Source of the DNA: an uncultured Planctomycetales bacterium
GTDB taxonomy: Bacteria; Omnitrophota; Gorgyraeia; Zapsychrales; Zapsychraceae
Assembly: GCA_964535935.1 (NCBI GenBank)
Contig: CAZHWM010000028.1
Location: 26,744 to 90,743 of the forward strand
Length of the DNA: 64,000 bases
Reading direction: 5' to 3'
Shown here: in pieces, positions 8,412 to 35,008 of the stretch
Layout of the letters: every line of letters begins with the position of its first letter
Position numbering within the stretch: position 1 is the stretch's first letter
Translations under genes and position numbers: made by a program
The notes under the pieces: generated by a model
Told to the model about the DNA's origin: nothing
Seen by the model: the letters and a program-made list of their open reading frames with translations, nothing else
The model's database searches: none

Positions 8412-8433
8412 AATAAAAAATAAAGATAATAAA

Positions 8434-10410: not shown

Positions 10411-10441
10411 CGTATTAATAATTTTTTAAGGATATATCATA

Positions 10442-12586: not shown

Positions 12587-12656
12587 AAAACCCCCCTCCC
12601 TTTCTTCTCAAAAATTATATTTAATTAAAAAGACTTAAAACTTTTTCTCTATATTC

Positions 12657-12684
12657 AATATACACACTATATATTGTGTGTCAA
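12657..12684 (-). promoter_or_regulatory. Sigma-70-type promoter of nrdDG (TTGACA-N16-TATATT on the minus strand)
   Basis: Minus-strand read is ttgaca cacaatatatagtgtg tatatt, about 70 nt upstream of the nrdD ATG. A strong GGAGG lies just before the ATG. Confidence 0.7.
12663..12680. promoter_or_regulatory. NrdR-box-like palindrome 1 (occupies the promoter spacer)
   Basis: cacactatatattgtgtg matches the published NrdR box consensus acaCwAtATaTwGtgt. Confidence 0.8.
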
Positions 12685-12694
12685 GTATTTTTTA

Positions 12695-12710
12695 ATACAA
12701 TATATAGTAT
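12695..12710. promoter_or_regulatory. NrdR-box-like palindrome 2
   Basis: atacaatatatagtat. Centre-to-centre distance to box 1 is 31 bp, the usual tandem NrdR-box phasing. Confidence 0.75.
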
Positions 12711-12727
12711 CAAATTATCTTTTTCTC

Positions 12728-17216: not shown

Positions 17217-18197
17217 TCAGAATATTTTTAAGGCAATCTGTGTGCCATCTGGCATCTCATCGTCTTTATTCTTTTTTAAATATATTGCCTTCTTAAAAAA
17301 ACGTAAAGCGAGATTATCTTCATTTAAAGACTTAAGGGATAAACCGTAATAATAATAGGCATCTGCAAAATTAGGTCTTTTTTTAATACATTCCTCCAAA
17401 AAAGACATAGCATCTTTATACTTTCCAGTATGAAAAGATGCTAACCCCGCATAATAATAATAAAAACCCTTCTCATCTAATCCTTCTTTTATCGCTGCAA
17501 CAGTATATCTTACAAGCTCATAATATTTCTTCTGATAATACCTGCTTAAAACCAATAGCATAAAACTATCCTTATATGCAATCATCTGCCTTAAAAAAGG
17601 ATTAATATGTTTTCCTGCACAGCTTGCATAAATCTGAGTAAATATCCTAGAAGATGAGATTACTTTCATATTAATCTCTGGGATAGTATCTATTGCATGT
17701 TTAAACATATTTGATGCCTTTTCATATTCTCCCTTATGAAAATAAATTATCCCAAGATTATGATAAAACCAGATATAAACAGGATTTAACTTTATTGCTT
17801 TTTTATAGTAATATTCTGCCTTATCAATATCCCCCAAATAATAATAACAATATCCTAACATAGCATAAGAATCAGGATAAAAAACCTCTGCATGTAGTGA
17901 GGGGATATATTCATTAAGTTTATTATAAAAAAATACCGCTTTCTCAAGAACTGCTTTTGTAAAGTTATCATCCCGAACGACATGGCCATCCCCTATATTT
18001 AGTAAAAAACATAAATCTGGCCTTAATCTATCTAATACTTTTACTCGAGCGGAATAAATAACCTTGGAAGTATCAACTGAAACTATTACTATTACTATAG
18101 CACCAATATAAAATATTATATTTCTTTGAAATAGAGATTTAAAAAAGCTTAATCCAATCCTTAAAAAATTCTTCCTATGTGGATTAATTACTTGCAT
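17217..18197 (-). CDS. Membrane-anchored TPR-repeat protein
   Basis: N-terminal TM. Multiple 34-aa TPR-like units (AxxYYxKAIxLNP pattern). Start overlaps the upstream membrane-protein gene by 14 nt. Confidence 0.75.
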   Translation of the reverse strand: MQVINPHRKNFLRIGLSFFKSLFQRNIIFYIGAIVIVIVSVDTSKVIYSARVKVLDRLRPDLCFLLNIGDGHVVRDDNFTKAVLEKAVFFYNKLNEYIPSLHAEVFYPDSYAMLGYCYYYLGDIDKAEYYYKKAIKLNPVYIWFYHNLGIIYFHKGEYEKASNMFKHAIDTIPEINMKVISSSRIFTQIYASCAGKHINPFLRQMIAYKDSFMLLVLSRYYQKKYYELVRYTVAAIKEGLDEKGFYYYYAGLASFHTGKYKDAMSFLEECIKKRPNFADAYYYYGLSLKSLNEDNLALRFFKKAIYLKKNKDDEMPDGTQIALKIF

Positions 18198-20292
18198 AAA
18201 AACCGTCCTTTAGACCAAAAAAGATAAGAGCAATAAACATTGCAAAAAATACACATAGTAAAAAATAATTCAAAAAATATTCTTCCCATGATCCGAATTT
18301 AAAATAAATTATATTCTCACCTGCTGGCAACCATATACCTTTAAATGCTATATCTGTTCTTAATACATCTACTGGCACCCCATTAATAAATGCCTTCCAG
18401 CCTCTACTATAGTTATCGCAATATAATAAAAACTTTTCTGTCTTAAAATCTGTCTTTATCTTTAAAGTATTTGCTGTATATTTTATCAAATGAAACCAAC
18501 TATCCTCTTCTTGTATAATTATAGGACCATCAGATGGGATCATAGCATTTTCTCTTATTTCATCCTTTTTATAAGGAGGATAAATAAAGGCAATATCTTT
18601 ATTTTCTTTAATAGCTTCTTCTATTTGTTTTGTCTCATCTTTATCTTGCACTGGAACAGTACGATTAAATATGTAAATCCTGTTACTTGCAAATCTCTTT
18701 ACTATTTTAGGGTCAATGCTCGCAACTAACCTTCCATACCATTTAGTCGCATAATGAAGAGAGCCCGTTCTTGGATTTCTTTTGTAAAAAAAATCTTGAT
18801 ATGGTTCATCATATAAATACTCTATCTTCACACTGCTAGAATTTCTTGCCAGATAATGATATACCTCTATAGGTTGCAATACAATAAGTATCAACAGATA
18901 AAACAAAATTGGGATCGTTTTTCTAAGAAGACCTGTGATATATGATATAAAAAAAACCATACTAAGAGCTATTACGATATAAGAAGAAAATATCCCATGC
19001 CCGAACTTAAAAATCAATACTGCAAATATAAGGTGTAATACAACAATAAAAGACAATAACAAATATCTATCTCTTTTCCTCTCTAATTGCAAATTAAGAA
19101 ATAACTTCATATTCTCTGCTGCAAATAATATAAATACTGGCAGCAGAACCCACCATAAAAAAAAATGAAGATTTCTAAAATATTTATAAAAAAAGATATG
19201 GTGGTATAAAAACTTATATATTGGGGCATATGGACAATGAAACAAATAGATCATTGAACTCAAAATAAACAGATAAAGAAGGAGTTTGTTCCCTTTAAGA
19301 AAGAGACCTAATAAAAGAATAATATAAACGAAAACAGGAACATACATAACTGCAAATTTAAATTTACGCAGATCATTAAATGCAGAGGAATACATTAAAT
19401 CTTCTGTTATACCCCATCCAGCAATAGTGTTGTATCCTACTTCTATGCTGTTGTGTGCCCGAATTCCATTGCTCCTTGAAGGAAGAACAAACTCTGATTG
19501 CGATGATGCCTTAAAAAGCCTAATCCCAGGGATAAGGGATAAACAAAAGGCAATCAAACATATACAAACTAAAATCTTATTACTCTTTATGAAAGCAACA
19601 CTATTTAAACATATATCTTTACATCTTAAAGGATAGACTCCAATAAATACCAACATAGAGATAATGACTATAGTAATAAAATAAAAAGGAAGATAGGTAG
19701 TAAAGATTATCATCACGGTAAAAATCATACCTATAAAAAAACTCCTGCATGGAGTTTGAAAAAAGGATATTATAAAAAAGAAGAACCATACCATAGGAAC
19801 AAATTCAAAGATGATAAAAGAATCAAATGGTCTGGTGGCAAGAGAAGAAAACATTAAAAGCAAATATGCAACAAAGGCTGCCAGTTTATCCTGCAAGATA
19901 CGTTTTGCCAACAAATAAAATCCTATCATACCGAGGTAATAATAAAGAGAAAGAAATAGTAAATAAGCTAAATGATGAGATAGTCCTAATTTCCTAAAAA
20001 GAATAATCAAAAAAAAGAAAGGATTAAAAGCCCCAAACCTCCTTAGAAAAAATTCATTCGGTGCACCACAATTCCATGCAGGGTCCCAAAGAGGGTAAAT
20101 TCCCTGCATCATATTATCAATAAAAAACTTAATATGATTATAATAGGAAATAGCATCACTCTGTAAAGGTAAGCGTCCAAAGACAAAATCCCTAAAACAA
20201 AATACCCAGACTACAAAGGAAAGAAAAAACAACAATCCAAAACCAAATTTTATATCTCTTTCCTTATTTAAAATAGAAGACTGTCCCATCAA
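18184..20292 (-). CDS. Large polytopic membrane protein, YfhO-like / GT-C-type glycosyltransferase candidate
   Basis: More than 12 predicted TM helices, a soluble C-proximal domain and a terminal TM. N-terminal pattern (YPLWDPAWNCGAP) resembles the YfhO family. Assignment is tentative. Confidence 0.55.
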   Translation of the reverse strand: MMGQSSILNKERDIKFGFGLLFFLSFVVWVFCFRDFVFGRLPLQSDAISYYNHIKFFIDNMMQGIYPLWDPAWNCGAPNEFFLRRFGAFNPFFFLIILFRKLGLSHHLAYLLFLSLYYYLGMIGFYLLAKRILQDKLAAFVAYLLLMFSSLATRPFDSFIIFEFVPMVWFFFFIISFFQTPCRSFFIGMIFTVMIIFTTYLPFYFITIVIISMLVFIGVYPLRCKDICLNSVAFIKSNKILVCICLIAFCLSLIPGIRLFKASSQSEFVLPSRSNGIRAHNSIEVGYNTIAGWGITEDLMYSSAFNDLRKFKFAVMYVPVFVYIILLLGLFLKGNKLLLYLFILSSMIYLFHCPYAPIYKFLYHHIFFYKYFRNLHFFLWWVLLPVFILFAAENMKLFLNLQLERKRDRYLLLSFIVVLHLIFAVLIFKFGHGIFSSYIVIALSMVFFISYITGLLRKTIPILFYLLILIVLQPIEVYHYLARNSSSVKIEYLYDEPYQDFFYKRNPRTGSLHYATKWYGRLVASIDPKIVKRFASNRIYIFNRTVPVQDKDETKQIEEAIKENKDIAFIYPPYKKDEIRENAMIPSDGPIIIQEEDSWFHLIKYTANTLKIKTDFKTEKFLLYCDNYSRGWKAFINGVPVDVLRTDIAFKGIWLPAGENIIYFKFGSWEEYFLNYFLLCVFFAMFIALIFFGLKDGFYASN

Positions 20293-20356
20293 GCCTTGCT
20301 CCTGAAAACTAAACTCAATATTCAGATAATAAATATAAAAAAAAAGTATAAACCTA

Positions 20357-21025
20357 TCAATTCTTATGATTAAGTATACTGGCTATTATAGCCTTCTCAT
20401 ATAACTGTGCCATGGCCTGTTGCATAGCCATATACCGTTGCTGTATAACAGCTAATCGAGCCTGTCTTTGTGCAATCTGCTGAACAACAACAGCCCTATG
20501 CTGGAGGACAGCTTGCTCTATCGCCTTCTCAACTATACGTTGAAATACAGGCTGATACACAATTGGTCTTATGACTCTATCCATCATTGAATTTAATTCT
20601 TTCTGCATAAGTGTGCCTGTCTCTCCTTCTGATATTTTATCCATGGCATAATCCATACATTGATTATAGGCCTCACGTAATATATCTTCTACAGATGCAT
20701 ACTTTAATCCCTGATAAGCAGCTTCTTGTATTGCATAATAAGCTATTTGAGGAAAAACATTTATATCGGATTTTTTCATGGCCCTAGTCATAACCTCTCC
20801 TACAATATGAAGATATGACTGCATAACCTCCTGTCTAACATTTTCCTCTATAGCCTTTCTTAAATCTGTTTTTTCCCATCTTTTATTAGAGGAAACATAT
20901 ATACCTGCTTCTTCCGAGACAGCCATAATCACATCTATAGTAAATATATAAATAATAAGACTCAGAAGACCTTTGACAAAAAAAATAATCCTTTTTCTAT
21001 ATCTTTGATTAAAGAAAACATACAT
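20357..21025 (-). CDS. Hypothetical membrane-anchored protein with Gln/Ala-rich C-terminus
   Basis: Long ORF with one N-terminal TM. No family recognised. Confidence 0.5.
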   Translation of the reverse strand: MYVFFNQRYRKRIIFFVKGLLSLIIYIFTIDVIMAVSEEAGIYVSSNKRWEKTDLRKAIEENVRQEVMQSYLHIVGEVMTRAMKKSDINVFPQIAYYAIQEAAYQGLKYASVEDILREAYNQCMDYAMDKISEGETGTLMQKELNSMMDRVIRPIVYQPVFQRIVEKAIEQAVLQHRAVVVQQIAQRQARLAVIQQRYMAMQQAMAQLYEKAIIASILNHKN

Positions 21026-24100: not shown

Positions 24101-26185
24101 CTACATAAGATTGTAAAATAAATTTCCTATTTGATATACAATAAAGGCAAAAACCCATGCCATGGCAATAGTTCCTAAAAAAAGGAATAACGTCCATTTA
24201 AGGTTCGAGGCTGTTTCACGATAAAATACAGATATAGCTGCTATACACGGTGGATAAATCATACAAAATATCAAAAAAGAAAAGGCCTTTAATGGATTCC
24301 AACTAGGATCATTACGTATTGCCTCCCTAAGGGCAGAATGATCAGAGCCCTCTTCTAAACTATACATCGTACCAAAGGTAGTTACAACGACTTCTTTGGC
24401 AGCAAGCCCTGATATTAAGGCTATACCTGCCCGCCAATCCAATCCTATAGGTCTCAAAATAGGTTCCATAACCCTTCCTAATTTACCTGCAATACTTTGT
24501 TTCAATTGTATAGAAGCAAAATTATCGCTGTTTTTAATCTCCTCTTTGTTTATCTCAGGAAAACTAAAACCAACCCAGACCAAAATAGAAATCAATAAAA
24601 TAATAGTTGCAGCCTTTTTTAAATAAAGCCGTGCCCGTGTCCATACCTTCAACAATAATCCTTTTAACGTAGGAACTCTATACGGCGGAAGCTCCATAAC
24701 AAAATATGCTGGGTCTCCTTTTAAAACGAATCTCTTTAAAACCCAAGCAGAACCAAAAGCAAGACCGACACTTATCGCATACATCAAAAACATAATATTA
24801 GTTTTATATGCTTCAGGGGAAAATGCACCAATAAAAAGTGCAAATATAGGAAGTTTTGCCCCACAAATCATAAAAGGAGTTACCAGCATAGTAATCAATC
24901 TATCTTTTTTGTTCTCTAATGTTCTTGCTGCCATAATTCCCGGCACCGCACATCCATTTGTTGATATCATCATAGGGACAAAAGACTTCCCATGTAAACC
25001 AAATTTATGCATAATTTTATCCATAATAAATGCTGCCCGTGCCATGTATCCGGAATCTTCAAAAAAGGCTATAGCAAAAAACATAAAAATAATTAAAGGA
25101 AAGAAACTTAATATACTCCCAATACCCCCTATAATCCCGTCAACAATAAAAGATTGAAATATCCCTTCCGGAATAAATTTTGTAGCCATAACTGAGATCC
25201 TGCCAAAAAATATTTCCAACCCTTTTATAACTGGTGCAGAAAAAGAAAAAGTAAATTTAAAGATAATATACATCACAAAAGCAAAAATAGGTAACCCTAA
25301 AAAACGGTTTAAAACAACCATATCAATTTTATCAGAAAAATCATGGTGTTCTTCTGGCGTCGAACGAATAACCTGCGTACATGCTCCAGATATAAAACCA
25401 TATCGCCTATCTGCTATAACAACCTCAGGTTCATCTTCAAACAACTCTTTTAAATATCCTCTACTCTTTTCACTCTGTTGAAAAATATCATTACCCAATG
25501 GTAACCTCATTATAACATCTATGGCTAATGAATCTGCCTCAAGTAGTTTTACTGCAAGCCACTTAACAGGATATTTTTTCAAAAGCTGCGTCTCTTTTTT
25601 TAAAAAAGTTACAAGCTTATCCAATTCCTCTTGAATCTCTTCACCATATGGAATATGAACCTTATCTCGGGTATCTTTCACTTTAACAAGATTAACAATT
25701 GCATCTAAAAGTGCATACATCCCCTTGTTTTTGTTTCCCACTGTAGGGACAACAGGCACTTTTAAAAGCCTTGAAAGTTCATTATAGTCTATTTTCTGCC
25801 CCTTCTTTTCAACAATATCTATCATATTCATAGCAAGTATAACAGGAACATCTATCTCCACAAGCTGGGTAAACAAATATAAATTCCTTTCCAAATTCGA
25901 TGCATCAACTATATGTAGAATAACATCTGGCCTTTGCTGAATTATAAAATTTCTTGTAACAGCCTCATCCTCTGAATATGCAGATAAACTATATGTCCCA
26001 GGAAGGTCAATAATAGTTATATTATACCCTTTATAGCTAACACGGCCTTCTTTACTCTCAACAGTTACACCTGGATAATTACCAACATGTTGAAAGGCAC
26101 CTGTTAGGTTGTTAAATATGGTTGATTTACCTGAATTCGGGTTTCCAACCAAAGCAACCACTAATTCCCGTGGACTTCCCATCAT
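24101..26185 (-). CDS. feoB: Ferrous iron transporter FeoB
   Basis: N-terminal G domain (GNPNSGKST, DLPGTYS) followed by the polytopic gate domains. Confidence 0.95.
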   Translation of the reverse strand: MMGSPRELVVALVGNPNSGKSTIFNNLTGAFQHVGNYPGVTVESKEGRVSYKGYNITIIDLPGTYSLSAYSEDEAVTRNFIIQQRPDVILHIVDASNLERNLYLFTQLVEIDVPVILAMNMIDIVEKKGQKIDYNELSRLLKVPVVPTVGNKNKGMYALLDAIVNLVKVKDTRDKVHIPYGEEIQEELDKLVTFLKKETQLLKKYPVKWLAVKLLEADSLAIDVIMRLPLGNDIFQQSEKSRGYLKELFEDEPEVVIADRRYGFISGACTQVIRSTPEEHHDFSDKIDMVVLNRFLGLPIFAFVMYIIFKFTFSFSAPVIKGLEIFFGRISVMATKFIPEGIFQSFIVDGIIGGIGSILSFFPLIIFMFFAIAFFEDSGYMARAAFIMDKIMHKFGLHGKSFVPMMISTNGCAVPGIMAARTLENKKDRLITMLVTPFMICGAKLPIFALFIGAFSPEAYKTNIMFLMYAISVGLAFGSAWVLKRFVLKGDPAYFVMELPPYRVPTLKGLLLKVWTRARLYLKKAATIILLISILVWVGFSFPEINKEEIKNSDNFASIQLKQSIAGKLGRVMEPILRPIGLDWRAGIALISGLAAKEVVVTTFGTMYSLEEGSDHSALREAIRNDPSWNPLKAFSFLIFCMIYPPCIAAISVFYRETASNLKWTLFLFLGTIAMAWVFAFIVYQIGNLFYNLM

Positions 26186-26411
26186 ATTTACTCCTTACAC
26201 GTATTTTTTTTGCTAAACCATAACCAATAGCTAAAGTTACTCCCTTTATATTTAGTGTAACAGGCCCCATTCCTGAATTATGAACAACTTTTATTTCTTC
26301 TCCTGGCAGTAGACCTATTTCCACTAGACGTTTCTCAGCCCCAAACCCACCTTCTATACAAATAAAAATAACACTTTCTCCTGATGGGATATCAATAAGT
26401 CGTTCAATCAC
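26127..26411 (-). CDS. feoA: FeoA-domain protein (second copy)
   Basis: FeoA SH3-like domain. The reading frame runs 59 nt into feoB. Confidence 0.8.
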   Translation of the reverse strand: MIERLIDIPSGESVIFICIEGGFGAEKRLVEIGLLPGEEIKVVHNSGMGPVTLNIKGVTLAIGYGLAKKIRVRSKYDGKSTGISGCFGWKPEFR

Positions 26412-26641
26412 GATATAACCTCCACCAGAACATATCTTGCTTCTTCCTTACGTAAAGATAAATGATATCCCCTTACCTTAACTTCAATAGGGTCCCCCAA
26501 TGGCGCTAACTTAATAACCTGAAGTTGAGATCCAGGAACAATACCCATATCAAGTAATTTCTTTCTTAAATGTCCACTTCCTTCTATCCTCTTTACCTTT
26601 GCGTGAGTAGATGGAGATAATTTGTTTAATAATGTTTCCAT
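26408..26641 (-). CDS. feoA: FeoA-domain protein (first copy)
   Basis: 77 aa. FeoA pattern (VKRIEG...LLDMGIVPGSQLQV...GDPIEVKVRGYHLSLRKEEA). Confidence 0.88.
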   Translation of the reverse strand: METLLNKLSPSTHAKVKRIEGSGHLRKKLLDMGIVPGSQLQVIKLAPLGDPIEVKVRGYHLSLRKEEARYVLVEVIS

Positions 26642-26667
26642 AATAATATATCCTTTTGAATTACTTT

Positions 26668-27254: not shown

Positions 27255-27290
27255 TTAGATTAATCTTATTTTGTTAGTGCATTCTAACAA
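27255..27290. promoter_or_regulatory. Second GTTAG-N6-CTAAC inverted repeat (27271-27290) plus a ttagattaatct 12-mer (27255-27266) shared with the feo operator. Candidate autoregulatory operator.
   Basis: ttgttagtgcattctaacaa has 7-bp arms. The 12-mer is identical to 26670-26681. Both lie 25-60 nt upstream of the regulator start. Confidence 0.6.
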
Positions 27291-27381
27291 ATATTTCCTC
27301 TTTGTCAATAAAATTATAAAACTTAAAAAAACTATACTTTCTATCATCCATTAAAAATGATTCAAACTACACTATAAAAAC

Positions 27382-29049
27382 TCACTTATCTATATTTTTC
27401 ATATAAGGGATTCGAATATGGAACTTAGCACACAAATAATTTATTTCCTTTTCTATTTTTTTATTATCCCCTCCATATTTAAGCAAACCTATAAGATAAT
27501 ATATTTTATTGAATGCCCAATTTCGTGCGATATCCTCCCCACCTTGTTCAGCCTTATCAAGTTGAGCTACAATCATAAACTCATTTTGTTCACCTTTAAG
27601 GTCACCTAACAATTGTAAGGAAAATTTATTTTCATCTGTATATTTACCGTATAAAGAAAATTCTGTATTACGAAAAAAATCAGGTAATGATTTTGGATAT
27701 ATCTGGGATTCATCCAATCCACTTACATGATATCGTAAATGTAAAAGAAGGGGTGATTTTATTTTACTATATAATTCAATTATCTGCCTTTTTATCATAT
27801 GTGTCCTATTAGTATACTCTGCCCATCCTCTATTTTTATATGCTATGAAATCAAGAAAATATCTATTAACTCCCATTCCTCCGCTCACAGTAAATATAGG
27901 TCGTCCTCCATTATCGAGCTTAGATATATCTCTTACTATCTTTGCTGCATTTGTTTCTCCTTCTGTAGGCCGACCATCGCTGAAGAAAATAATATAAGAA
28001 GGATCTATAATTTTTTTTATCTTAATACTTTGATAAAAGGCATTATATGCATTCGTCTTCTGTTTAACTATAAGGCTATCAACAAATAATTTAGCTTGCT
28101 CTATAGCTGTCTTACTTGCCTTTACAGAATGTGGTCGAAACCATAATATCTCCCTTTTAAATGCACCTATATTAAAATAATCTCCTTTATTTAAATTTTC
28201 CAAACAATATTTTAACCCTTCTTTAAACTGATTAAACCTTTCTCTTCCTATACTAGAAGAACAATCAATAAGAAAAACTACCTCTTTCGGCATTATTGGT
28301 AATTTTAACCCATCCTTTCCTACCCGGATACCAATCTTATAATATTTCTCGCCATCTGGAGCAACATATGTCATAAGATTACATATTAAATACTGTTTTA
28401 AGTCTGAGGGCTTCGTTTTCCTTTTTATAACAGAATGTCTAATATTCGATATTCCTTTGGTTGTAATCTTTTCGTTTGAAATTAATTCTTCATTTATCCC
28501 CTTAGGAGTAAACCCTGGCATCTTATCAAAAAAATCTCTGCTAGCGTTTACTTCTTTTGTTATATCAGGAGAAGAACTCGGGCCATCTTCGCCTATTATT
28601 GAAGAAACCTCTACCAACTCCTTACGGGTCTTACGCGCATCTTTTTTCCTAACATGTTTATAATTTCTTTGATCATTCACTAATTCCTCTAAAGATTCAT
28701 CTTGATGGGATGAAGAAGGAGCGGGAACAAGGGTAGTAGGCGGAGCATTAAATATTAATTCATTCTTTGCTATATGCTCTGCCTCTGAGCTTACTTCCTT
28801 CTCTAATTTAGCCTCCTCTCTATTATCAGGTTTTACAAATTTCATAGTATTAATAGAAATAACTCCTCTATTTTTAACAACTTTCCTAGGAAGATCGACA
28901 TTTATTTTGTTTATCCTAAATAATCGTCGAGAACGTAGGATATTGATATGTATACTGGGTATCTCTATATCCCTCATAGTCAAGAACAAGGATATATGTA
29001 CTAAAACGGAAACTGTTATTGCAAAAAATATGTCTCTTTTATTATTCAT
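27382..29049 (-). CDS. TolA/TonB-like N-terminal anchor fused to a VWA (MIDAS) domain
   Basis: The single TM FFAITVSVLVHISLFL carries S-x3-H (compare E. coli TolA ISAVLHVILF). The VWA domain has DxSxS (VVFLIDCSSSIG) and SDG (FFSDGRPTEG). 4-nt overlap with the upstream TPR gene. Confidence 0.75.
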   Translation of the reverse strand: MNNKRDIFFAITVSVLVHISLFLTMRDIEIPSIHINILRSRRLFRINKINVDLPRKVVKNRGVISINTMKFVKPDNREEAKLEKEVSSEAEHIAKNELIFNAPPTTLVPAPSSSHQDESLEELVNDQRNYKHVRKKDARKTRKELVEVSSIIGEDGPSSSPDITKEVNASRDFFDKMPGFTPKGINEELISNEKITTKGISNIRHSVIKRKTKPSDLKQYLICNLMTYVAPDGEKYYKIGIRVGKDGLKLPIMPKEVVFLIDCSSSIGRERFNQFKEGLKYCLENLNKGDYFNIGAFKREILWFRPHSVKASKTAIEQAKLFVDSLIVKQKTNAYNAFYQSIKIKKIIDPSYIIFFSDGRPTEGETNAAKIVRDISKLDNGGRPIFTVSGGMGVNRYFLDFIAYKNRGWAEYTNRTHMIKRQIIELYSKIKSPLLLHLRYHVSGLDESQIYPKSLPDFFRNTEFSLYGKYTDENKFSLQLLGDLKGEQNEFMIVAQLDKAEQGGEDIARNWAFNKIYYLIGLLKYGGDNKKIEKEINYLCAKFHIRIPYMKNIDK

Positions 29050-31424
29050 AAATTATCCTGCACAAGCAACTTTAACCGCTGCTTGGCCTCTTCAGCTAAA
29101 TCGCTTTGACTATACACATCAACAATCTCTTTATATACCTTAATTGCATCTTTTCTTTTCTTCAATTCTTCCAATATCCTTCCTGCTCTAAATAAAGCCT
29201 CCGGACAATAAATATCATCATTATATAAAACAGCGACTAACATATAAAATTTATACGCCTCTTCTATATTACCTCTTTCTTGCTCAAGATTGGCAATCTC
29301 AAATCTGGCCCTCATAGTTATAGTCGCATCATCAGGATACTCAACAATAGCAGTCTCAAACTCCTTTCTTGCATCGGAATATCTTTTTAATGCAGACAGA
29401 CATAATCCTTTACCGATATAAGATGCTGCCGTATATACATTCGAAGTCCGTGATAATAATACTATATTATAATTTTTTATCGACTTCTGATATTCCTTCT
29501 TTTTCCGAAAAGCAAGTGCCTTAAAATAAGCTATCTCTATATTATCTTTTCCGTCTACATCTTTCTTCTGAGCCCTTTGTAGGACCTCCAACGCTTTATC
29601 TAAATGCTCTTCATTAACATATTTCTCAGCAAGCCATATATATACCTTAATATTTAAACCACGGCCATCAAACTCTGTAATAATCTTATCATATACGTCA
29701 GCAGCCAATTGTTCTTGCCCCTGATCTAAATATATCAATGCCATATTCTTTAATGATGATGCTATAAGATCTTTACTTGCCTTTGTAAAATCTATCTTTT
29801 TATAGTAGTCTAAGGCTTCCTCTTTATCTCCCTTTATCTGCAAGTCATATGCTAAAAGAAAATATATCTTATTTAACCTATTACTCTTAGGATACTTTAA
29901 TATAAAGGACTTTAAGAGTCCTATTGCCTTATCATATTCTTTCAAATCTCCATATAAATTAGCCAGACGAAACATAACCAATTCACTACGATACCAATTC
30001 TTAAATTTATTCAAATAAAGTTCGCTATCTTTAACCGCCTTATCTGTCATTCTCTCCCTAATAGCAAGCAAAATATCATTATAAAGAGACTCTCTCCTTT
30101 TAGAAAGATCTTTTCCCTGCTGAAAATATTTAAAAAATAATTCCATAGCTTTCTTATTATCTCCTGCTGCCTTTTTCGCATGCGCTGCTCCATAAAGGGC
30201 ATCGTCAGCAAAATCAGAAGAAGGGAAATTATCAATAATCTGTTTATATAATTCATATGATTTTGAAAAATTAGCTAATCCATAATATGCTTCTGCTTCC
30301 AAAAATAATCTTCTATCCTTTCCTACTGTTACATCAGAAAATCCCTTATCTAATAACTCTATAGCCTCTTTCATATGCTTTGATTTAACTAATACCTCTG
30401 CCTTTTCTAATAATGCCTTATTTCTATCAAACTCACTGATGGAAGTATTAGTTAATATACTATTTAAAATCTGCTCTGCTTTTTTATATTGTGATAACTC
30501 AACATATGCTGAAGCCACAATATAATATATTTCAAAAAAATTATCCCCTTCCTTAGCTATAGCTTTATATTTATTATAAACTGAAAGTAAATCTTCATAC
30601 TTAGAAAGGTCATATAAACTCAACAACAAGTTAGAAAACGCATCCTTTACAATGTCTTCATTAAGATATTTATCCAAAATACCTTTAAAGACCTGTATCG
30701 CGGAAAGATAATCTTTATTTAAAAAATATGCTTCTCCTTTTTTATAGAGAATAAAACTCTTTATTTTTTTATCATTAGTACTATTAAATGCCCTATCATA
30801 ATATTTTAAGGCCATCTCAAGTTTATGATCCTTAGCCAAAATAGCTCCTGCTTCAATTAGAGCATCTACAGCACAATGACTTCCTTTTAATATAGCAACT
30901 GCCTCATCAAAGCTCTTAATTGCCTGCTCTTTATCTCCCTTACCCAAATAAGCCTTACCTTTACAAAATACTAATATCTGCCTAAAACTATCATCCAAGG
31001 ACCTACTGTTAACTGAAGAAAGCCATTCTAATGCTGATGTATAGTCGTTTAAAAAAAGAAATGACTGTCCTAATCTCATTTTAGCAAGGTCCACCTTTTT
31101 TCCTTGAGGAAACAAATGTAGATACTCTTTATATTGCTCTATCGCATTATGATAATGCTTAAGAAAAAAACTACTTTCAGCCTTACCAAAATATGCCTCA
31201 GGTAAATATTTGCTTTGCTTAAAAGAACTAATAAACTTACCATATTCATCTGCTGCCATCTTATAAAACCCACGCTGAAAAAGGCCATTTGCAAAATCCA
31301 GCTGCTCAAGATCACTTGAAACCACTGGGGCCTTTGCAAAAACCGTGACGTTAAATGAAAACAGGAAAGTTAAAAATAATAAAATAATAACAATATGTGT
31401 TACTCGCTTATAAAAATCTCGCAT
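29046..31424 (-). CDS. Secreted 792-aa TPR-repeat protein
   Basis: Signal peptide (VFA/KA), then TPR-like units along nearly the entire length. The start is 1 nt after the ExbD stop. Confidence 0.8.
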   Translation of the reverse strand: MRDFYKRVTHIVIILLFLTFLFSFNVTVFAKAPVVSSDLEQLDFANGLFQRGFYKMAADEYGKFISSFKQSKYLPEAYFGKAESSFFLKHYHNAIEQYKEYLHLFPQGKKVDLAKMRLGQSFLFLNDYTSALEWLSSVNSRSLDDSFRQILVFCKGKAYLGKGDKEQAIKSFDEAVAILKGSHCAVDALIEAGAILAKDHKLEMALKYYDRAFNSTNDKKIKSFILYKKGEAYFLNKDYLSAIQVFKGILDKYLNEDIVKDAFSNLLLSLYDLSKYEDLLSVYNKYKAIAKEGDNFFEIYYIVASAYVELSQYKKAEQILNSILTNTSISEFDRNKALLEKAEVLVKSKHMKEAIELLDKGFSDVTVGKDRRLFLEAEAYYGLANFSKSYELYKQIIDNFPSSDFADDALYGAAHAKKAAGDNKKAMELFFKYFQQGKDLSKRRESLYNDILLAIRERMTDKAVKDSELYLNKFKNWYRSELVMFRLANLYGDLKEYDKAIGLLKSFILKYPKSNRLNKIYFLLAYDLQIKGDKEEALDYYKKIDFTKASKDLIASSLKNMALIYLDQGQEQLAADVYDKIITEFDGRGLNIKVYIWLAEKYVNEEHLDKALEVLQRAQKKDVDGKDNIEIAYFKALAFRKKKEYQKSIKNYNIVLLSRTSNVYTAASYIGKGLCLSALKRYSDARKEFETAIVEYPDDATITMRARFEIANLEQERGNIEEAYKFYMLVAVLYNDDIYCPEALFRAGRILEELKKRKDAIKVYKEIVDVYSQSDLAEEAKQRLKLLVQDNL

Positions 31425-31425
31425 C

Positions 31426-31845
31426 TTACTCCTCTTTCATAGTAGAAAAAGATATATTCCATATATCCGCAGCTGCACAAGCATCTAATACCCTTATGAC
31501 ATATTTATGATATGCATTCTCGTCCGCCCTTATAATTACAGCTTGATTAGGAAAAAGCGCGGCTACGCGCTTTAACATTTTCTGCAACCCTTCTTTAGTC
31601 AATTCCTTTTGATTTACAATCACCCTACCATCTTTAGTGATATTAATAATAATCTCTCCCGGACTTCTAACAGGATTGACTGACTCTGATGCCTTAGGAA
31701 CACTTATACTCAACTCTGATTCTAACTGCCCAAATACAGACATAACCATAAAAAAAACTAATGTAAGAAAAATAATATCTATTAATGGGGCCATCTGTAT
31801 CACAGGTCTTTGTTTCTGATACTGGGATACAACAAATTTTGACAT
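31426..31845 (-). CDS. exbD: ExbD/TolR-family biopolymer transport protein
   Basis: MAPLIDIIFLTLVFFM with the conserved TM Asp. ExbD periplasmic domain. Confidence 0.9.
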   Translation of the reverse strand: MSKFVVSQYQKQRPVIQMAPLIDIIFLTLVFFMVMSVFGQLESELSISVPKASESVNPVRSPGEIIINITKDGRVIVNQKELTKEGLQKMLKRVAALFPNQAVIIRADENAYHKYVIRVLDACAAADIWNISFSTMKEE

Positions 31846-31887
31846 CTCCTACCTCCTATAAAAACTATATAAATAATCAACCATACT

Positions 31888-32631
31888 TTATAAATCCTCA
31901 ATAAGTTTTATAATTTCCGTAGTATTATTCTCTATAATATTAACTATACTCTGGACTCTACCGCGGAAAAAAGAATAAAACATCATAGCAGGTATTGCTA
32001 CTATAAGACCAGCCGCAGTAGTAACCATTGCCTTGGAAACTCCACCTGCTAACAGTATAGGTTTAACAGCTACTGTTTGAAAGGCAATTACATTAAAGGC
32101 CTGAATCATCCCCAAAACCGTCCCCAATAAACCCACAAGAGGGGCGACTGTGGCAACATCTGCAAGATAACTGATATTTTGCCACAGATTGCTTATCTCT
32201 TTCCTTGCACAATCTTCCATAGCCTCACGAGCAAATATATGCCCCTTTGAACGTCTTAGTAACCCTGCCATAACAATTTTGGAAATAATATTATCCTTGG
32301 TCTTACACATTTTTTCAGCAGCTATTTTCTGCTTTCGTTCCAATTTATTTATAACCTCTAAAGTAAATTTTTCCGGAATAAGTCTAGATGTCTTAAGGGT
32401 AATAAAATTATATACTATCAATGCAGTAGCAAGTATCGATAAAAAACCTAATACAACCATAACAAAACCACCTGCCTGAACCAACTGCCACAAAGTCATT
32501 CCCTGTTCAGACTGCTGTACTGAGGCTATATATGGCTTTAATTTATCCATCCCTGTAGCTGCAAATACTGGAAAGATACTACCCACAGCCACAATAATAT
32601 TAAAAAGAAATATAATTCCTGTCTTTCTCAT
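31888..32631 (-). CDS. exbB: MotA/TolQ/ExbB-family proton channel
   Basis: Conserved C-terminal helices (APLVGLLGTVLGMIQAF ... ALVTTAAGLIVAIPA). Confidence 0.9.
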   Translation of the reverse strand: MRKTGIIFLFNIIVAVGSIFPVFAATGMDKLKPYIASVQQSEQGMTLWQLVQAGGFVMVVLGFLSILATALIVYNFITLKTSRLIPEKFTLEVINKLERKQKIAAEKMCKTKDNIISKIVMAGLLRRSKGHIFAREAMEDCARKEISNLWQNISYLADVATVAPLVGLLGTVLGMIQAFNVIAFQTVAVKPILLAGGVSKAMVTTAAGLIVAIPAMMFYSFFRGRVQSIVNIIENNTTEIIKLIEDL

Positions 32632-32689
32632 TACAGCTCCTTTCGTTTCAAAAAAATATAAAAATATTTATAATATATTATAACAAACT

Positions 32690-35008
32690 CTATCTTTCCC
32701 CCACAGAAAAATTTAAATGAACATTTTTTATAAATATCAACAACAAAAATACAGAAAAATTCAGCAATGAACAAAGAAGTGCTGTTACACCTATACCAAA
32801 TATAGGGATAAAAAAAGTTGCAGCCATTACGGCACCTATAGCTGCCCCCAAAGAATCAAAAGCATATAACATTCCTGCATGCATAGATATATCTCTAGTT
32901 TTGGGTTCTATTGAACAGTCTTTCTTATCTACCCTATCAGAGGCAAGCAAATACGTTGCCATAGGATATTGCATACCTCCTATAAAACCTGCAATAATAG
33001 GCAACGAGGCAAAAATACTGGCCAAAAATATGGATGAAATATACCCAGGCCTGAAGTCCCTAAAAATAATAAAAATAAGAGGTAAAAGCAAAGGATAAAT
33101 ACATATAGAAAGCTGAGTAATTTTATACCAATTAAAAATACTATTAAAAGTAGAAACAACAATAATCCTTTTGGCGGATAAACTTCCTAAAAATAAACCT
33201 AACATAAAAGATGCAATAATAATACTAATTTTATAATAAGCATAACCATAAAGAGATTGAAAGGCTATAATTACAATTATCTGAAAGATTATCTCTGAGA
33301 AACCTGTAGTAAGAATAGAGAAAGATACAGGGACATTAAGTCCTTTTTTAATAAAAAATAATCCACATATTAAAAATGAAACTGGTATAACCATAAGATA
33401 ATAATATAAAGAAATATTTCGCAAATATGCAAAAAGTGCTTTAAAATATGTATTGAAATGAGTTGACCATAAAAGAATATCGTATAAATAAGATATTGGT
33501 CTCATGTCAGTATTAATATCTCCTCCCTTTTTATCCAGTATTTTCTGTATCTGTAACCTACGATCAGGACTCAATTGATAAGGCAAATAATATTCTCTCA
33601 CATATTTAGTCTTTATCTTACGCTGTTTCAATCGTTGAACTAAGACATCTGGGAGGAGGGTAATTCCTTCTTTACTAGTGGAAGCCACAAAGACCGCTGT
33701 ATCTGTAGGCACGAGCTTCACATCAGCAAAAGCTTGCTTTAATGTAGAATAAATGGAGCGTAAAAACTGTCGCTGCTCTGTGCTTAGATAATTTTCAGAT
33801 GAAGACACACTTAAAGATAATATACCGGATGGGGCCAATATTCTCTTTACTTCTTGAAAAAATTCAAGGGTATAATAACGGTTTACCATTGCTGTCAAAG
33901 GATCGGGTAAATTTATAATAACAACATCGTAGTTCTGATTTGATCTCTTAACAAACATCCTCCCATCCATGTGAATAATATGTACACGGGGATCATGTAA
34001 TGGCTGTATTATATCAGCAGGCAGATATTGTTGTGATACTAAGATAACCTTTGGATCCAATTCCACATAGTCAAGCCGTGCTATATGATGTTTTAATATC
34101 TCTTTCACCGCCCCTCCAATTCCCCCGCCGATAAGCAGGACTTTCTTAGGAGAAGGATGTGCCAACATAGCATAATGGACCCTTGTTTCTGCAGAAAGGT
34201 CATCTTTTGTAGAAAAGGAAAATAAACCATTTTCAAATAGATTATATTCTGTTCCTAAACGTGTAAGTACGATATTCCCATATATGGAATCCGTGATATC
34301 GACTATCGTGGTCCCTTTCCATTGTATCCTACGAGAAATTGTATCAAACCTATCAACCCATCCGAGAAGATACAAAATCAAACTGCCTAATATAAAGACT
34401 GCCAACCATATACTTCTCATCCTTACCCTACTCAAGATAAATATCCCGGCTATCAAATTCAGTATTCCTATAAAAAATATTATCTCAACAGCAGAAAAAT
34501 AATGGACTAAGACATAACCAAAAATAAGTCCACCTGTGGCAGCCCCTGCTGATTCCCATAAATATAAAGAGCCAATATCTTCTATTTCTTCTGGAATACT
34601 TTTATCGTTGATAGATAACCTGCACAAAAATGAAAACATAGCACCAAAAAGAGATGCCGAAGGAGCAAGTAAAATAAAAATAGAAAGAAAAGCAGGAACA
34701 ATACCTATAATTTCTCCTATATGAAGATGCATAAATTGCTTTATACATCTAGAAACAAAAATAGTTGCGGGAAGACATAGATAAAGAAAAAACTGAATAA
34801 CAACCAATGCTACCGGAGATTTCTTTTGTCTTTGCCTAAGTGCACCTCCTATAACAAAACTACCTACACTTACCCAAAACAACCATACAGCAAGAATAAT
34901 AGCATAAACAGTCTCATTGCCATAAAATACCGTAACCAACTCACGCATTAAAACTACTTGAACAATTACCGAACTTATCCCCAGAATAAATGCTAAGAAG
35001 GCTAGCAT
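32690..35008 (-). CDS. Fused polytopic membrane domain / spermidine-synthase-like aminopropyltransferase-fold protein
   Basis: Central SAM-MTase/SpeE-like segment (KKVLLIGGGIGGAVKEILKH ... YVELDP ... YDVVIINLPDP) flanked by many TM helices on both sides. Confidence 0.8.
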   Translation of the reverse strand: MLAFLAFILGISSVIVQVVLMRELVTVFYGNETVYAIILAVWLFWVSVGSFVIGGALRQRQKKSPVALVVIQFFLYLCLPATIFVSRCIKQFMHLHIGEIIGIVPAFLSIFILLAPSASLFGAMFSFLCRLSINDKSIPEEIEDIGSLYLWESAGAATGGLIFGYVLVHYFSAVEIIFFIGILNLIAGIFILSRVRMRSIWLAVFILGSLILYLLGWVDRFDTISRRIQWKGTTIVDITDSIYGNIVLTRLGTEYNLFENGLFSFSTKDDLSAETRVHYAMLAHPSPKKVLLIGGGIGGAVKEILKHHIARLDYVELDPKVILVSQQYLPADIIQPLHDPRVHIIHMDGRMFVKRSNQNYDVVIINLPDPLTAMVNRYYTLEFFQEVKRILAPSGILSLSVSSSENYLSTEQRQFLRSIYSTLKQAFADVKLVPTDTAVFVASTSKEGITLLPDVLVQRLKQRKIKTKYVREYYLPYQLSPDRRLQIQKILDKKGGDINTDMRPISYLYDILLWSTHFNTYFKALFAYLRNISLYYYLMVIPVSFLICGLFFIKKGLNVPVSFSILTTGFSEIIFQIIVIIAFQSLYGYAYYKISIIIASFMLGLFLGSLSAKRIIVVSTFNSIFNWYKITQLSICIYPLLLPLIFIIFRDFRPGYISSIFLASIFASLPIIAGFIGGMQYPMATYLLASDRVDKKDCSIEPKTRDISMHAGMLYAFDSLGAAIGAVMAATFFIPIFGIGVTALLCSLLNFSVFLLLIFIKNVHLNFSVGER

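Follow-up and report, generated by a model that had tools for sequence, protein, structure and literature searches.

A putative proton-motive-force-driven Ton/Tol-type transducer with an ITIH-like VWA head encoded by a conserved four-gene operon of Omnitrophota

Introduction

What does a Ton/Tol-type proton motor act on when the transducer encoded with it ends in a VWA domain instead of a TonB or TolA C-terminus? This question is raised by four neighbouring genes in a 64,000-nt stretch of Omnitrophota DNA (the window), which encode an ExbB/TolQ-like and an ExbD/TolR-like stator subunit, a secreted TPR protein and a 555-aa VWA protein. An earlier note on this DNA had read the genes as encoding a transducer that is energised by the proton motive force (pmf) and carries a VWA module, and of the readings considered here this is the best supported. 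Judged from sequence comparison, we give a probability of roughly 0.6 to the interpretation that this quartet forms a self-contained, pmf-driven Ton/Tol-type force-transduction system of the envelope with a VWA-hybrid head as its output.

Results

Organization of the operon

A check of the open reading frames placed the four genes on the minus strand at 31888–32631 (ExbB/TolQ-like stator subunit of 247 aa that begins with a signal-like segment), 31426–31845 (ExbD/TolR-like stator subunit, 139 aa), 29046–31424 (TPR protein, 792 aa) and 27382–29049 (VWA transducer, 555 aa). Direct reading of the junctions bore out the tight coupling described before: exbB and exbD are spaced by 42 nt with GGAGG preceding the exbD ATG, the 3′ end of exbD reads GAGGAG-TAA and is separated by a single G from the ATG of the TPR gene, and the TPR and VWA genes overlap by the 4 nt ATGA. 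In the 58-nt gap between the stop of the SpeE-like gene and the exbB start, we read a candidate extended −10 promoter element, TGTTATAAT (32677–32685, minus strand). As a promoter element of the quartet it is a lead only; it is absent from the output of a two-hexamer promoter scan, whose promoter count was no higher than that of shuffled sequence.

HMM searches agreed with the domain assignments made earlier, with matches to MotA_ExbB (PF01618, E 2.9e-30), ExbD (PF02472, E 2.4e-27), TPR and VWA families; Pfam and NCBIfam returned only VWA_3/VWA on the 555-aa protein and neither TonB_C (PF03544) nor TolA_C (PF06519) at E ≤ 0.1. The Pfam scan of the window covered 50 ORFs, including the quartet and the SpeE-like gene, while mre/mrdA/rodA, the znuBC-like ORFs and a few small ORFs lay outside this set. 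Its 45 further ORFs (44 of at least 100 aa, which are most of the non-nested ones, and a 94-aa feoA) held no TolB, Pal/OmpA, TonB_C, Plug or TBDT barrel at E ≤ 0.001, in line with the earlier statement on TolB, Pal and TonB-dependent receptors, and no tolA, tolB or pal occurred among the 50. Immediately downstream of the operon, the window encodes a DtxR-like repressor, FeoA and FeoB. Upstream of the mre genes lies a ZnuA-like gene (Pfam), followed by ABC-ATPase-like and permease-like ORFs, which, by eye and outside the scan, we take to be ZnuC and ZnuB.

Motor subunits

The best solved match of the quartet ExbB is E. coli TolQ (8odt, E 4.5e-13), with an ExbB structure at E 2.7e-9, and the protein scores under the equivalog cutoffs of both tolQ (TIGR02796, 94.4 bits vs 221) and exbB (TIGR02797, 55.4 bits vs 206). 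Similarly, the quartet ExbD stays under the tolR cutoff (TIGR02801, 58.4 bits vs 127.3) and reaches 34–40 bits with the ExbD models of NCBIfam, whose cutoffs are 123–153; among solved structures it matches ExbD and not TolR. ExbBs of different quartets match each other at E 2e-92 and the canonical Ton ExbB of the same genome at 5e-19, and the corresponding values for ExbD are 2e-60 and 5e-13. By these sequence comparisons, the two subunits form an orthologous lineage of their own.

Key residues of the motor are retained. The transmembrane Asp of the quartet ExbD, D23 (codon 31777–31779), aligns to D25 of E. coli ExbD, with conservation of at least 98% across 50 orthologues, and a residue-level alignment with conservation over 48 orthologues places T171 and T205 of the quartet ExbB on T145 and T178 of TolQ. 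At a further position, K200 (codon 32032–32034) aligns to TolQ E173, and quartet ExbBs carry Lys or Gln at the site of E173 in TolQ and E176 in ExbB. Mutant work in E. coli showed that this TM3 Glu of TolQ/ExbB (E173/E176) matters for function; since it is missing in the quartet ExbB, the motor may work differently.

Anchor helix, candidate motor box and linker of the transducer

The 555-aa protein starts with a signal-anchor helix (residues 4–26; 28972–29040, minus strand; AF2 pLDDT 80–94) of the sequence FFAITVSVLVHISLFL, which contains S14-x3-H18 (His codon 28996–28998). K4 and R5 stand before the helix, an A-x-A-type cleavage site is lacking behind it, and the segment is predicted to be a single N-in transmembrane signal anchor that stays uncleaved. 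In an alignment of 140 family members, 135 N-termini are intact and 132 of these have the His, with Ser (126), Ala (5) or Thr (2) four positions ahead of it, while the rest of the transmembrane helix is variable around this invariant residue. In Hydrogenedentes, the single copy carries Tyr instead of this His and is frameshifted. S-x3-H was found in 53/59 family members, whereas of 337 hydrophobic segments at the N-termini of unrelated ORFs in these loci only 4 (1.2%) have it. With regard to the longer pattern S-x3-H-x6-L-x3-S (SHLS), S and H are kept, whereas L and the second S, 7 and 11 positions behind the His, vary.

The proposed correspondence to the TolA and TonB anchors was upheld by MAFFT, which put the anchor His into one column with H20 of E. 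coli TonB, H22 of TolA and the His of an Omnitrophota TonB; TonB H20 and TolA H22 are essential in E. coli (PMC10666116). A profile of the N-terminal part (residues 1–252) found no match, TonB and TolA included, among all PDB sequences at E ≤ 10, and 112 matches among 1.84 billion representatives, nearly all of them 535–611 aa long or shorter fragments. As the HMMER profile gave no match to TonB or TolA, homology of the anchor is at the level of the motif only, and we infer motor docking through His18 and Ser14 from motif identity with TonB/TolA together with conservation.

About 26 residues past the anchor His, the family has a conserved strand-prone segment, LFRINKI (residues 42–48; 28906–28926, minus strand), which is a candidate for a motor (stator) box, a concept taken from PMC12204202. 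At position 44 (F44 here) 120/140 members have Phe, at position 46 137/140 have V, I or L, and MAFFT aligns the segment onto the ISVTMV segment of TonB. Because AF2 models the segment as coil or disordered, its role as a motor box is presumptive. The linker itself (about 190 residues, 31–218; 28396–28959, minus strand) is disordered, with pLDDT < 50 apart from values of about 65 around residues 171–187. It is charged (K+R 36, D+E 27), contains 12 Pro and carries a conserved motif, DFxxKMPGFTP (residues 173–182, nt 28504–28533). The first VWA strand follows the anchor His at a distance of 216–287 residues (median 235) in 132 members. In E. coli, a fully disordered domain II of 127 residues still passes force (PMC10666116).

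ITIH-like VWA head

The VWA domain (residues 256–430; 27760–28284, minus strand; VWA_3 E 1.5e-8, VWA E 4.1e-7) has the intact MIDAS attributed to it before, consisting of D262-x-S264-x-S266 (D-C-S-S-S; nt 28252–28266), T332 and D358, and all five residues are present in 140/140 family members. The tail of about 150 aa behind it had been described as uncharacterised. This description no longer holds, as profile search and Foldseek resolve the tail into a hybrid-type beta-sandwich (residues 433–496) and a three-helix region (506–554; both within 27385–27759, minus strand). Profile search of the PDB sequences matched ITIH1 (6fpy) at E 1.7e-32, with residues 245–545 of the query on 272–593 of the chain, and Foldseek matched ITIH1 at E 9e-24 over 347 columns with an rmsd of 3.7 Å. 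The hybrid domain is completed by strands at residues 221–243 (nt 28321–28389), so that the VWA domain is inserted as in the HC-Hybrid1 arrangement of ITIH1 (domain boundaries from PMC7170535). As the tail corresponds to the ITIH1 hybrid domain and helices, the head is integrin-beta-like.

ITIH1 and the bacterial VIT-VWA proteins (TIGR03788) thus share with the 555-aa protein a complete-MIDAS vWFA domain within an integrin-like hybrid domain, followed by three helices. In contrast to them, the large VIT/Hybrid2 beta-sandwich is gone and a TonB-like anchor and linker are found instead: the VIT domain (PF08487) has no match in the protein, and more distant VIT-bearing database matches align with no more than the C-terminal 54% of the query. 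The protein scores 122.8 bits against the TIGR03788 cutoff of 551.65 and, unlike this sortase-target family, is anchored in the inner membrane, has a motor linked to it and shows no sortase signal. YfbK matches the head weakly. An identity as BatA/BatB was rejected, since no BatA domain is present and BatB (3ibs) appears at rank 38 by fold, through the VWA core alone. In addition, the PADLOC anti-phage models gave no quartet match beyond one at chance level (E 0.009), and the protein falls into no characterised family; membership in one was among the three refutations named in the earlier note, none of which came true.

TPR protein

The 792-aa protein has a signal peptide at its start and matches many TPR families and no other Pfam family. 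TIGR02795, the YbgF-type repeat, covers six stretches (E 2.5e-52; 176.5 bits vs a cutoff of 90.1), the CpoB model NF008068 scores 65.5 bits against a cutoff of 383, and the CpoB N-terminal coiled-coil domain (PF16331) has no match. E. coli CpoB matches the TPR orthologues with E-values down to 2e-28. These orthologues have signal peptides throughout, a lipobox is not consistent among them, and conservation peaks at residues 41–80 (LDFANGLF motif) and 721–760. The single-sequence AF2 model is all-helical with about 40 helices and has low confidence (pLDDT 58). The protein resembles CpoB/YbgF in its repeats, its periplasmic location and its encoding in a TolQR-type operon, but it is larger (792 aa with about 20 hairpins vs 263 aa) and lacks the N-terminal trimerising coiled coil. 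The suggestion that it takes the position of CpoB applies to the type of repeat and not to the gene order, with the TPR gene between exbD and the transducer gene and cpoB at the end of tol-pal.

Conservation of the quartet

The four-gene linkage expected in relatives was found in the same order and on the same strand in 45 of 46 related independent loci with enough upstream DNA, the 46 loci being distinct species-level genomes. Most quartet-bearing loci belong to Omnitrophota, and Planctomycetota-labelled MAGs (L064–L066) have the linkage as well. The same gene order in 45/46 loci and the rarity of S-x3-H in the background (1.2%) make chance an unlikely explanation. The exbD-like gene is a single copy in the window and in the 45 complete-quartet loci, where the tolQ-like and TPR genes are also present. 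Universal linkage is limited to these four genes. The mre/rodA and Feo flanks are not kept among related loci, and the argument for an envelope function from the adjacency of mreBCD-mrdA-rodA and SpeE fails for this reason.

In one genome (L063), a canonical TBDT-ExbB-ExbD-TonB_C-FecBCD cluster adjoins the quartet, which marks the quartet as a system separate from Ton. Whether canonical sets accompany the quartet had been raised as a check, and this cluster, with its tonB, is one instance for Ton; for Tol, phmmer with E. coli TolA, TolB and Pal found none in 1.06 Mb, which comprises the whole window and all fetched loci and is not genome-wide.

Relationship to known force transducers

The architecture class has already been proposed: Williams-Jones et al. 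2025 (Mol Biol Evol msaf138, PMC12204202) described, purely in silico, vWA force transducers with an SHLS helix in the PVC group. These adjoin tolQ/tolR-like and TPR genes, were modelled as complexes with AF3 and were found from a seed of Tichowtungia aerotolerans (Kiritimatiellota). The earlier note knew of no characterised system with this architecture; as a class it has been described, and no characterised family was matched. The Omnitrophota quartet is a distinct version of this class. Both have an S-x3-H transmembrane helix with a conserved box soon after it, a disordered linker, a VWA-fold C-terminus that replaces TonB_C/TolA_C, and synteny with tolQ-like, tolR-like and TPR genes. However, no homology to the Tichowtungia seed was detectable (hhalign probability 8.4%, 134 columns, VWA core only; a few letters of the seed sequence may be misread, as it was transcribed from a PDF table). 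The VWA domain of the seed is highly divergent, with no Pfam VWA match and D-A-N-K-L where the quartet family has an invariant D-x-S-x-S, and the ITIH-like quartet head with its hybrid domain and helices represents another VWA lineage. Besides that, the transducer and the TolR-like gene, each single in the quartet, both occur twice at the seed locus, where the TolR-like pair is heterologous; the seed linker has about 100 residues compared to about 190, and a Lys that replaces the conserved TM3 Glu distinguishes the quartet ExbB from the seed. Omnitrophota are missing from the taxa given for vWA transducers in PMC12204202.

With TonB and TolA, the quartet transducer shares type II topology, the in-register S-x3-H, a strand-prone box, a long periplasm-spanning linker and gene linkage to an ExbB/TolQ and ExbD/TolR stator with conserved Asp and Thr. 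It differs in having no TonB_C/TolA_C, a variable L and second S of SHLS, a stator below all NCBIfam equivalog cutoffs with Lys at the position of TolQ E173, and a TPR gene between exbD and the transducer gene; no TBDT, TolB or Pal linked to the quartet was found in the window or the fetched loci.

Discussion

Proposed mechanism

By analogy, an ExbB pentamer and an ExbD dimer would form a 5:2 inner-membrane proton motor, in which ExbD D23, the Asp that carries the protons, and T171 and T205, the threonines of the ExbB pore, are conserved. The 555-aa type II membrane protein would dock with its N-terminal helix outside the ExbB ring, and the strand-prone segment following it may be captured by the periplasmic ExbD dimer, like the motor box proposed for TonB/TolA. 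The motor would then pull the disordered linker of conserved length, which is predicted to join the head through the two hybrid-domain strands ahead of the VWA domain. If the invariant MIDAS metal holds an acidic residue of a ligand at or near the outer membrane, the force would act on that ligand, and more speculatively, given the integrin-beta-like modules, a pull transmitted by the hybrid domain could in addition switch the affinity of the MIDAS. The co-conserved secreted TPR solenoid of about 790 aa may be an obligatory partner, either as docking platform or ligand or as a CpoB-like coordinator. The quartet would work beside canonical TonB uptake without replacing it. Candidate roles are outer-membrane tethering or remodelling and the energising of a non-TBDT outer-membrane component.

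Alternative interpretations

The alternative that survives best specifies a function and is compatible with this mechanism: the quartet could be a functional analogue of Tol-Pal that stabilises or constricts the outer membrane at division, with the VWA transducer as TolA, the TPR protein as a CpoB-like factor and a MIDAS-bound outer-membrane or peptidoglycan partner in the place of TolB-Pal. A stator nearer to TolQ than to ExbB (94 vs 55 bits; PDB E 4.5e-13 vs 2.7e-9), repeats of the CpoB/YbgF type, the lack of TolA, TolB and Pal in the 1.06 Mb of fetched DNA and the position of the operon after mreBCD-mrdA-rodA all point in this direction. However, this adjacency is not kept in relatives, the sampled DNA falls short of a genome-wide survey, the TPR protein is without the CpoB coiled coil (PF16331), and ExbD matches solved ExbD and not TolR, so that we regard this role as unlikely.

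Mechanical coupling might also be absent altogether, with a Bat- or ITIH-like anchored periplasmic VWA and TPR complex merely co-transcribed with an ExbBD motor that energises, for example, TonB elsewhere. Bat operons provide a precedent, as VWA and TPR membrane proteins occur in them together without known motors, and BatA/BatB are likewise membrane-anchored periplasmic VWA proteins encoded beside TPR proteins. The anchor without statistical homology to TonB/TolA and the missing TM3 Glu of the quartet ExbB would fit such a complex, too. Nevertheless, the quartet VWA protein lacks a BatA_N domain, MoxR and DUF58 are absent from the neighbourhoods in the window and in L061–L066, and Bat operons are not known to contain ExbBD. 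An invariant His in TonB/TolA register within an otherwise variable helix, strict synteny with a dedicated ExbBD lineage and the ability of quartet genomes to hold a second, canonical ExbBD-TonB set speak for coupling and render mere co-transcription quite improbable.

We consider it very improbable that the motor drives a VWA adhesin in surface adhesion or gliding as in Agl-Glt/CglB, or in host attachment by host-dependent Omnitrophota. Such a gliding role was speculated on in PMC12204202 for its vWA transducers; the Myxococcus gliding adhesin CglB is a VWA protein (PMC9946355), and Omnitrophota have been reported as host-dependent nanobacteria (PMC10066038). Yet a signal anchor fixes the VWA head to the inner membrane, and with neither an outer-membrane nor a secretion signal the head should not leave the periplasm; no Glt-like, T9SS or adhesin genes linked to the quartet were found in the examined neighbourhoods. 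Finally, a metal (iron) uptake accessory in which the MIDAS senses or captures metal is suggested by the downstream dtxR-feoAB genes and by the ZnuA-like gene and putative ZnuC/ZnuB-like ORFs upstream of the mre genes, but it is highly improbable because this linkage is not conserved, the Feo adjacency being confined to this genome and its near-identical contigs and absent in the other 60-plus loci, and in the promoter scan a strong promoter-like site (TTGACA-16-TAGAAT) belongs to the dtxR-like gene itself.

Implications

The pmf-driven transducer favoured here may be taken one step further, to a tentative and rather unlikely reading in which the quartet evolved independently and represents a third class of output for Ton/Tol-type motors. 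Its integrin-beta/ITIH-like MIDAS-hybrid head would then be a force-regulated, catch-bond-like clamp with an essential envelope function in Omnitrophota, driven by altered motor chemistry. If this were true, the replacement of the TM3 Glu by Lys would reflect the altered chemistry, and a pull through the hybrid domain would switch how tightly the metal site binds a ligand in the outer membrane or on the TPR protein. Such a clamp would serve these ultra-small, host-dependent bacteria in, for example, outer-membrane tethering or remodelling, either replacing Tol-Pal or acting beside it.

Conservation and genomic context of the four-gene operon

ORF listing together with Pfam and NCBIfam matches recovered the four minus-strand genes reported in the earlier note: an ExbB/TolQ-like protein (31888–32631, 247 aa; PF01618, E 2.9e-30), an ExbD/TolR-like protein (31426–31845, 139 aa; PF02472, E 2.4e-27), a TPR protein (29046–31424, 792 aa) matching TPR-type families only, and a VWA protein (27382–29049, 555 aa) matching VWA families only. 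Direct reading of the sequence bore out the tight junctions described for this quartet. The exbD gene ends in GAGGAG-TAA, followed by a single G and the ATG of the TPR gene, and the VWA gene overlaps the TPR gene by an ATGA; 42 nt separate the ExbB stop from the ExbD start, which is preceded by GGAGG. Promoter and terminator scans performed no better than on shuffled sequence, and the operon boundaries therefore rest on gene spacing. An extended -10-like element, TGTTATAAT (32677–32685, minus strand), lies in the 58-nt gap 5' of exbB, and a near-consensus TTGACA-16-TAGAAT with TG (27281–27308, minus strand) is located 5' of the dtxR-like gene; these two promoter-like elements suggest that the quartet and dtxR-feoAB may form separate transcription units. 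According to gene calls on an identical contig, feoB is preceded by a tandem pair of feoA genes of 77 and 94 aa (window 26127–26650, minus strand; L069, 5409–5923); ORF listing of the window with a minimum of 80 aa gave the 94-aa gene alone.

A one-genome-per-species scan yielded 60 loci with genes for relatives of the 555-aa protein, almost all of them from Omnitrophota MAGs, including Candidatus Tantalella and Makaraimicrobium. ORFs were called in each locus and searched with the proteins of the window. In 45 of the 46 loci that had over 3.8 kb of upstream sequence, ExbB, ExbD, TPR and VWA genes followed each other in this order on a single strand, mostly separated by a few bases or joined by short overlaps, so that the proposed four-gene linkage is kept in relatives. 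Clustering of all flanking ORFs left these four as the sole universally linked genes, and an identical 555-aa protein was found on metagenome contigs in an unchanged local context. Altogether, the quartet is a real and robust finding. Distant members, some of them labelled Planctomycetota, carry the same quartet with a single ExbD. The only Hydrogenedentes locus (L060, 9038–10973) has the same four genes, with a VWA gene that is split by a frameshift and encodes Tyr at the helix position of the family His; this copy is a pseudogene or else results from faulty assembly.

The relationship to canonical Ton systems could be examined in one Omnitrophota genome, where a TBDT-ExbB-ExbD-TonB_C-FecBCD cluster directly adjoins the quartet. 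Quartet ExbB and ExbD proteins match one another far better than the adjoining canonical pair. The quartet is thus a separate system with a dedicated motor lineage. On a Planctomycetota-type contig (L066, 1–3168), a second cluster immediately upstream of the quartet consists of TPR, ExbB, ExbD, ExbD and a 391-aa YdjY-domain protein, similar to the two-TolR arrangement reported for PVC bacteria. The YdjY-domain protein was rejected as a further transducer, as it carries a signal peptide and lacks an anchor with the His.

An envelope function had previously been argued from the position directly downstream of mreBCD-mrdA-rodA and a SpeE-like gene. This argument fails, since the upstream flank is not conserved across loci; functional links to mreBCD-rodA-SpeE and, on the same grounds, to the downstream dtxR-feoAB genes were rejected. 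The SpeE-like gene between rodA and exbB (32690–35008, minus strand) encodes a 772-aa protein with a polytopic membrane region fused to a spermidine-synthase-like domain (84 bits against NF037959, fused MFS/spermidine synthase; cutoff 40). One other locus (L005) has a SpeE-like copy, located downstream of the quartet and not adjoining exbB. The next commonest neighbour is a GT4 glycosyltransferase directly 3' of the VWA gene at 15 loci of one subclade (for example, 11291–12418 in L036), and a weakly Wzy_C-like membrane protein is encoded downstream of the VWA gene in L065 (9776–11254). These neighbours may hint at envelope-glycan biology or simply reflect clade-level synteny.

Neither TolB, Pal, TonB_C nor a TonB-dependent receptor was found by Pfam in 45 further ORFs of the window, in line with the earlier note. 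This set covers most non-nested ORFs of at least 100 aa, leaving out mre/mrdA/rodA, znuBC-like genes and a few small ORFs. The window encodes LptF/LptG and MlaDEF, which indicates a diderm organism with LPS, as well as NrdD (anaerobic ribonucleotide reductase) and radical-SAM activase-like genes, which point to an anaerobic lifestyle. A small regulatory cluster comprises genes for an ECF sigma factor, an anti-sigma factor (zf-HC2) and a DUF3106 protein. These two gene groups lie at 9722–13576 and 7448–9660 on the minus strand. Elsewhere (17217–21025, minus strand), a gene for a 326-aa TPR protein is followed by ORFs of 702 and 222 aa, both with no Pfam match at E ≤ 0.001.

Anchor, linker and head of the 555-aa protein

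The N-terminal helix of the 555-aa protein had been proposed to carry the S-x3-H signature of TonB/TolA anchors, and this signature is kept across the family. When 40 full-length relatives with identities as low as 32% were aligned, H18 proved invariant and S14 at least 90% conserved. Among 140 family members, 132 of the 135 intact N-termini have His at this position, and the residue at -4 is Ser in 126, Ala in 5 and Thr in 2 cases. As a control, S-x3-H occurred in 4/337 unrelated ORFs with an N-terminal hydrophobic segment, and any His in 17%. In a MAFFT alignment, the family His shares a column with TonB H20, TolA H22 and the His of Omnitrophota TonB; Ser at -4 is also present in E. coli TonB and TolA, and Ala in Omnitrophota TonB. 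H20A and H22A abolish the function of TonB and TolA, respectively (PMC10666116). Beyond the helix, the ISVTMV segment of TonB aligns onto an F-x-[VIL] segment of the family, with F44 in 120/140 members and V, I or L at position 46 in 137/140. Homology of the anchor to TonB/TolA is not demonstrable by HMMER, where a PDB search with the N-terminal profile returned nothing at E ≤ 10. Of the SHLS motif, the L and the second S vary within the family. Specific to this family, the N-terminal module had 112 representatives among 1.84 billion sequences, almost all of them proteins of 535–611 aa or shorter fragments. In a 5.8-billion-protein database, the family profile A1 and the single sequence recovered identical candidate sets.

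AF2 modelling on the family alignment (mean pLDDT 73) gave a confident helix (residues 4–26), a disordered stretch (31–218) and a confident globular module (221–555). In 132 members, 216–287 residues (median 235) separate the His from the first VWA strand, which indicates that the length of the linker is constrained and its sequence is not. In chimeras of E. coli TolA and TonB, force is still transmitted through a domain II that is disordered throughout (PMC10666116). Conserved motifs within the linker, apparent in the 40 full-length relatives, were unexpected. One of them, DFxxKMPGFTP (residues 173–182; 28504–28533, minus strand), lies mid-linker in disordered surroundings and is found in about 60–70% of the family, with P182 in 120/140. 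The KMPGFTP part is the sole place in this stretch where pLDDT reaches about 65, with isolated beta-bridges. The motif may bind the TPR protein, or it may dock on the head; around F71 there is another motif, LKFExP.

The globular module begins with two strands and comprises a VWA domain (residues 256–430), a beta-sandwich (433–496) and helices (506–554). The MIDAS residues D262, S264, S266, T332 and D358 are present in 140/140 members. The head is homologous to inter-alpha-inhibitor heavy chain 1 (ITIH1), its best solved match both by profile search (E 1.7e-32, query 245–545 against chain 272–593) and by Foldseek (E 9e-24, 347 columns, rmsd 3.7 Å). In ITIH1, the vWFA domain is inserted into a hybrid domain of the integrin-like type, two strands preceding and six following it, then three helices, and a large VIT sandwich lies N-terminal to this region (PMC7170535). 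The 555-aa protein has all of these parts but the VIT sandwich, in whose place it carries the anchor and the linker. What the earlier note had called an uncharacterised tail is therefore an ITIH1-type hybrid beta-sandwich with helices. In agreement with this assignment, the NCBIfam VIT-VWA sortase-target family matches residues 253–549, below its cutoff; E. coli YfbK matches the VWA core only. The reported lack of TonB_C and TolA_C domains was reproduced with Pfam and NCBIfam. Membership in the BatA/BatB proteins was rejected on the Pfam results, with BatB ranking only 38 by fold, and a search for known defence systems led us to reject an anti-phage role.

Motor subunits and the TPR protein

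Alignment to the solved E. coli proteins places ExbD D23 at ExbD D25, and ExbB T171 and T205 at TolQ T145 and T178; all three residues are conserved across orthologues. The stator reaches no NCBIfam equivalog cutoff and, judged by NCBIfam scores and solved-structure alignment, resembles TolQ slightly more than ExbB. One position stands out: K200 of the quartet ExbB (32032–32034, minus strand) aligns to TolQ E173 (E176 in ExbB), which we take to be functionally important in both of these proteins. This Lys is at least 90% conserved in Omnitrophota quartets (48 sequences) and is replaced by Gln in the Planctomycetota-labelled ones (L064–L066), whereas Glu is kept in the canonical Ton ExbB from an Omnitrophota genome (L063). 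By alignment, the Lys represents a charge reversal.

The TPR protein has a signal peptide; a lipoprotein was rejected, as there is no consistent lipobox. Its repeats are of the CpoB/YbgF type, without the CpoB coiled coil, and conservation is highest at both ends. A single-sequence AF2 model is all-helical, with low confidence (pLDDT 58.5, pTM 0.37).

Relationship to vWA force transducers proposed in the literature

To our knowledge, Ton and Tol were for a long time the only TonB/TolA-type tether routes delivering inner-membrane energy to the outer membrane of diderm bacteria. A vWA-tipped tether was first proposed in 2025 from structure predictions (Williams-Jones et al., PMC12204202), so that the architecture, for which the earlier note knew of no characterised system, has already been put forward in the literature on computational grounds. 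The published transducer has a TMH with an SHLS motif (S-x3-H-x6-L-x3-S), a motor box, a domain II of ~100 residues and a C-terminal domain of vWA fold; it occurs in several phyla, and its His lies on the motor in AF3 models (PMC12204202).

We compared the family with the transducer of Tichowtungia aerotolerans (Kiritimatiellota), using sequences from the supplement of that study. The architecture is common to both. However, the linker of our family is longer than domain II, and its canonical, MIDAS-intact, ITIH-like head differs from that of the published protein, which reads D-A-N-K-L at the MIDAS position and gave no VWA match in Pfam. The hhalign comparison reached 8% probability over 134 columns in the VWA core. 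The Tichowtungia locus has two transducers and two TolR-like genes, whereas our family has a single ExbD. Omnitrophota are not listed for the published family (PMC12204202), and a literature search returned no paper linking this phylum to the quartet; it is possible that the Foldseek-defined family includes some of our members. Judged from these sequence comparisons, the family is a lineage separate from the Tichowtungia transducer, so that either a TonB-type anchor was fused to a VWA head more than once or this fusion is very old.

Proposed mechanism and implications

The best-supported reading is that a PMF-driven 5:2 stator would pull on the integrin-like VWA-hybrid head through the TonB/TolA-type anchor and the disordered tether. 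We infer that the helix docks on ExbB, that the box is captured by ExbD and that force is passed on to the head, which would be held by its MIDAS metal to a partner near the outer membrane, with the TPR solenoid as an obligatory partner. The nature of the ligand, and any allosteric switching through the hybrid domain, would be further inferred elements of this scheme. Candidate cellular roles are a Tol-like envelope role, the energising of a non-TBDT outer-membrane component, or adhesion.

The quartet provides a cleaner and more testable instance of a vWA-tipped tether: its four genes form a strict module in dozens of species, the anchor His and the complete MIDAS are invariant, and the head has a solved and well-understood integrin-like homologue. 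If the mechanism holds, its natural variants with Lys or Gln at the conserved TM3 Glu would serve to dissect 5:2 motors, and integrin-style, force-coupled metal-site adhesion would extend to a bacterial proton motor. It would also point to an undescribed process, in the periplasm or at the outer membrane, of a phylum that is poorly understood and for the most part uncultured.
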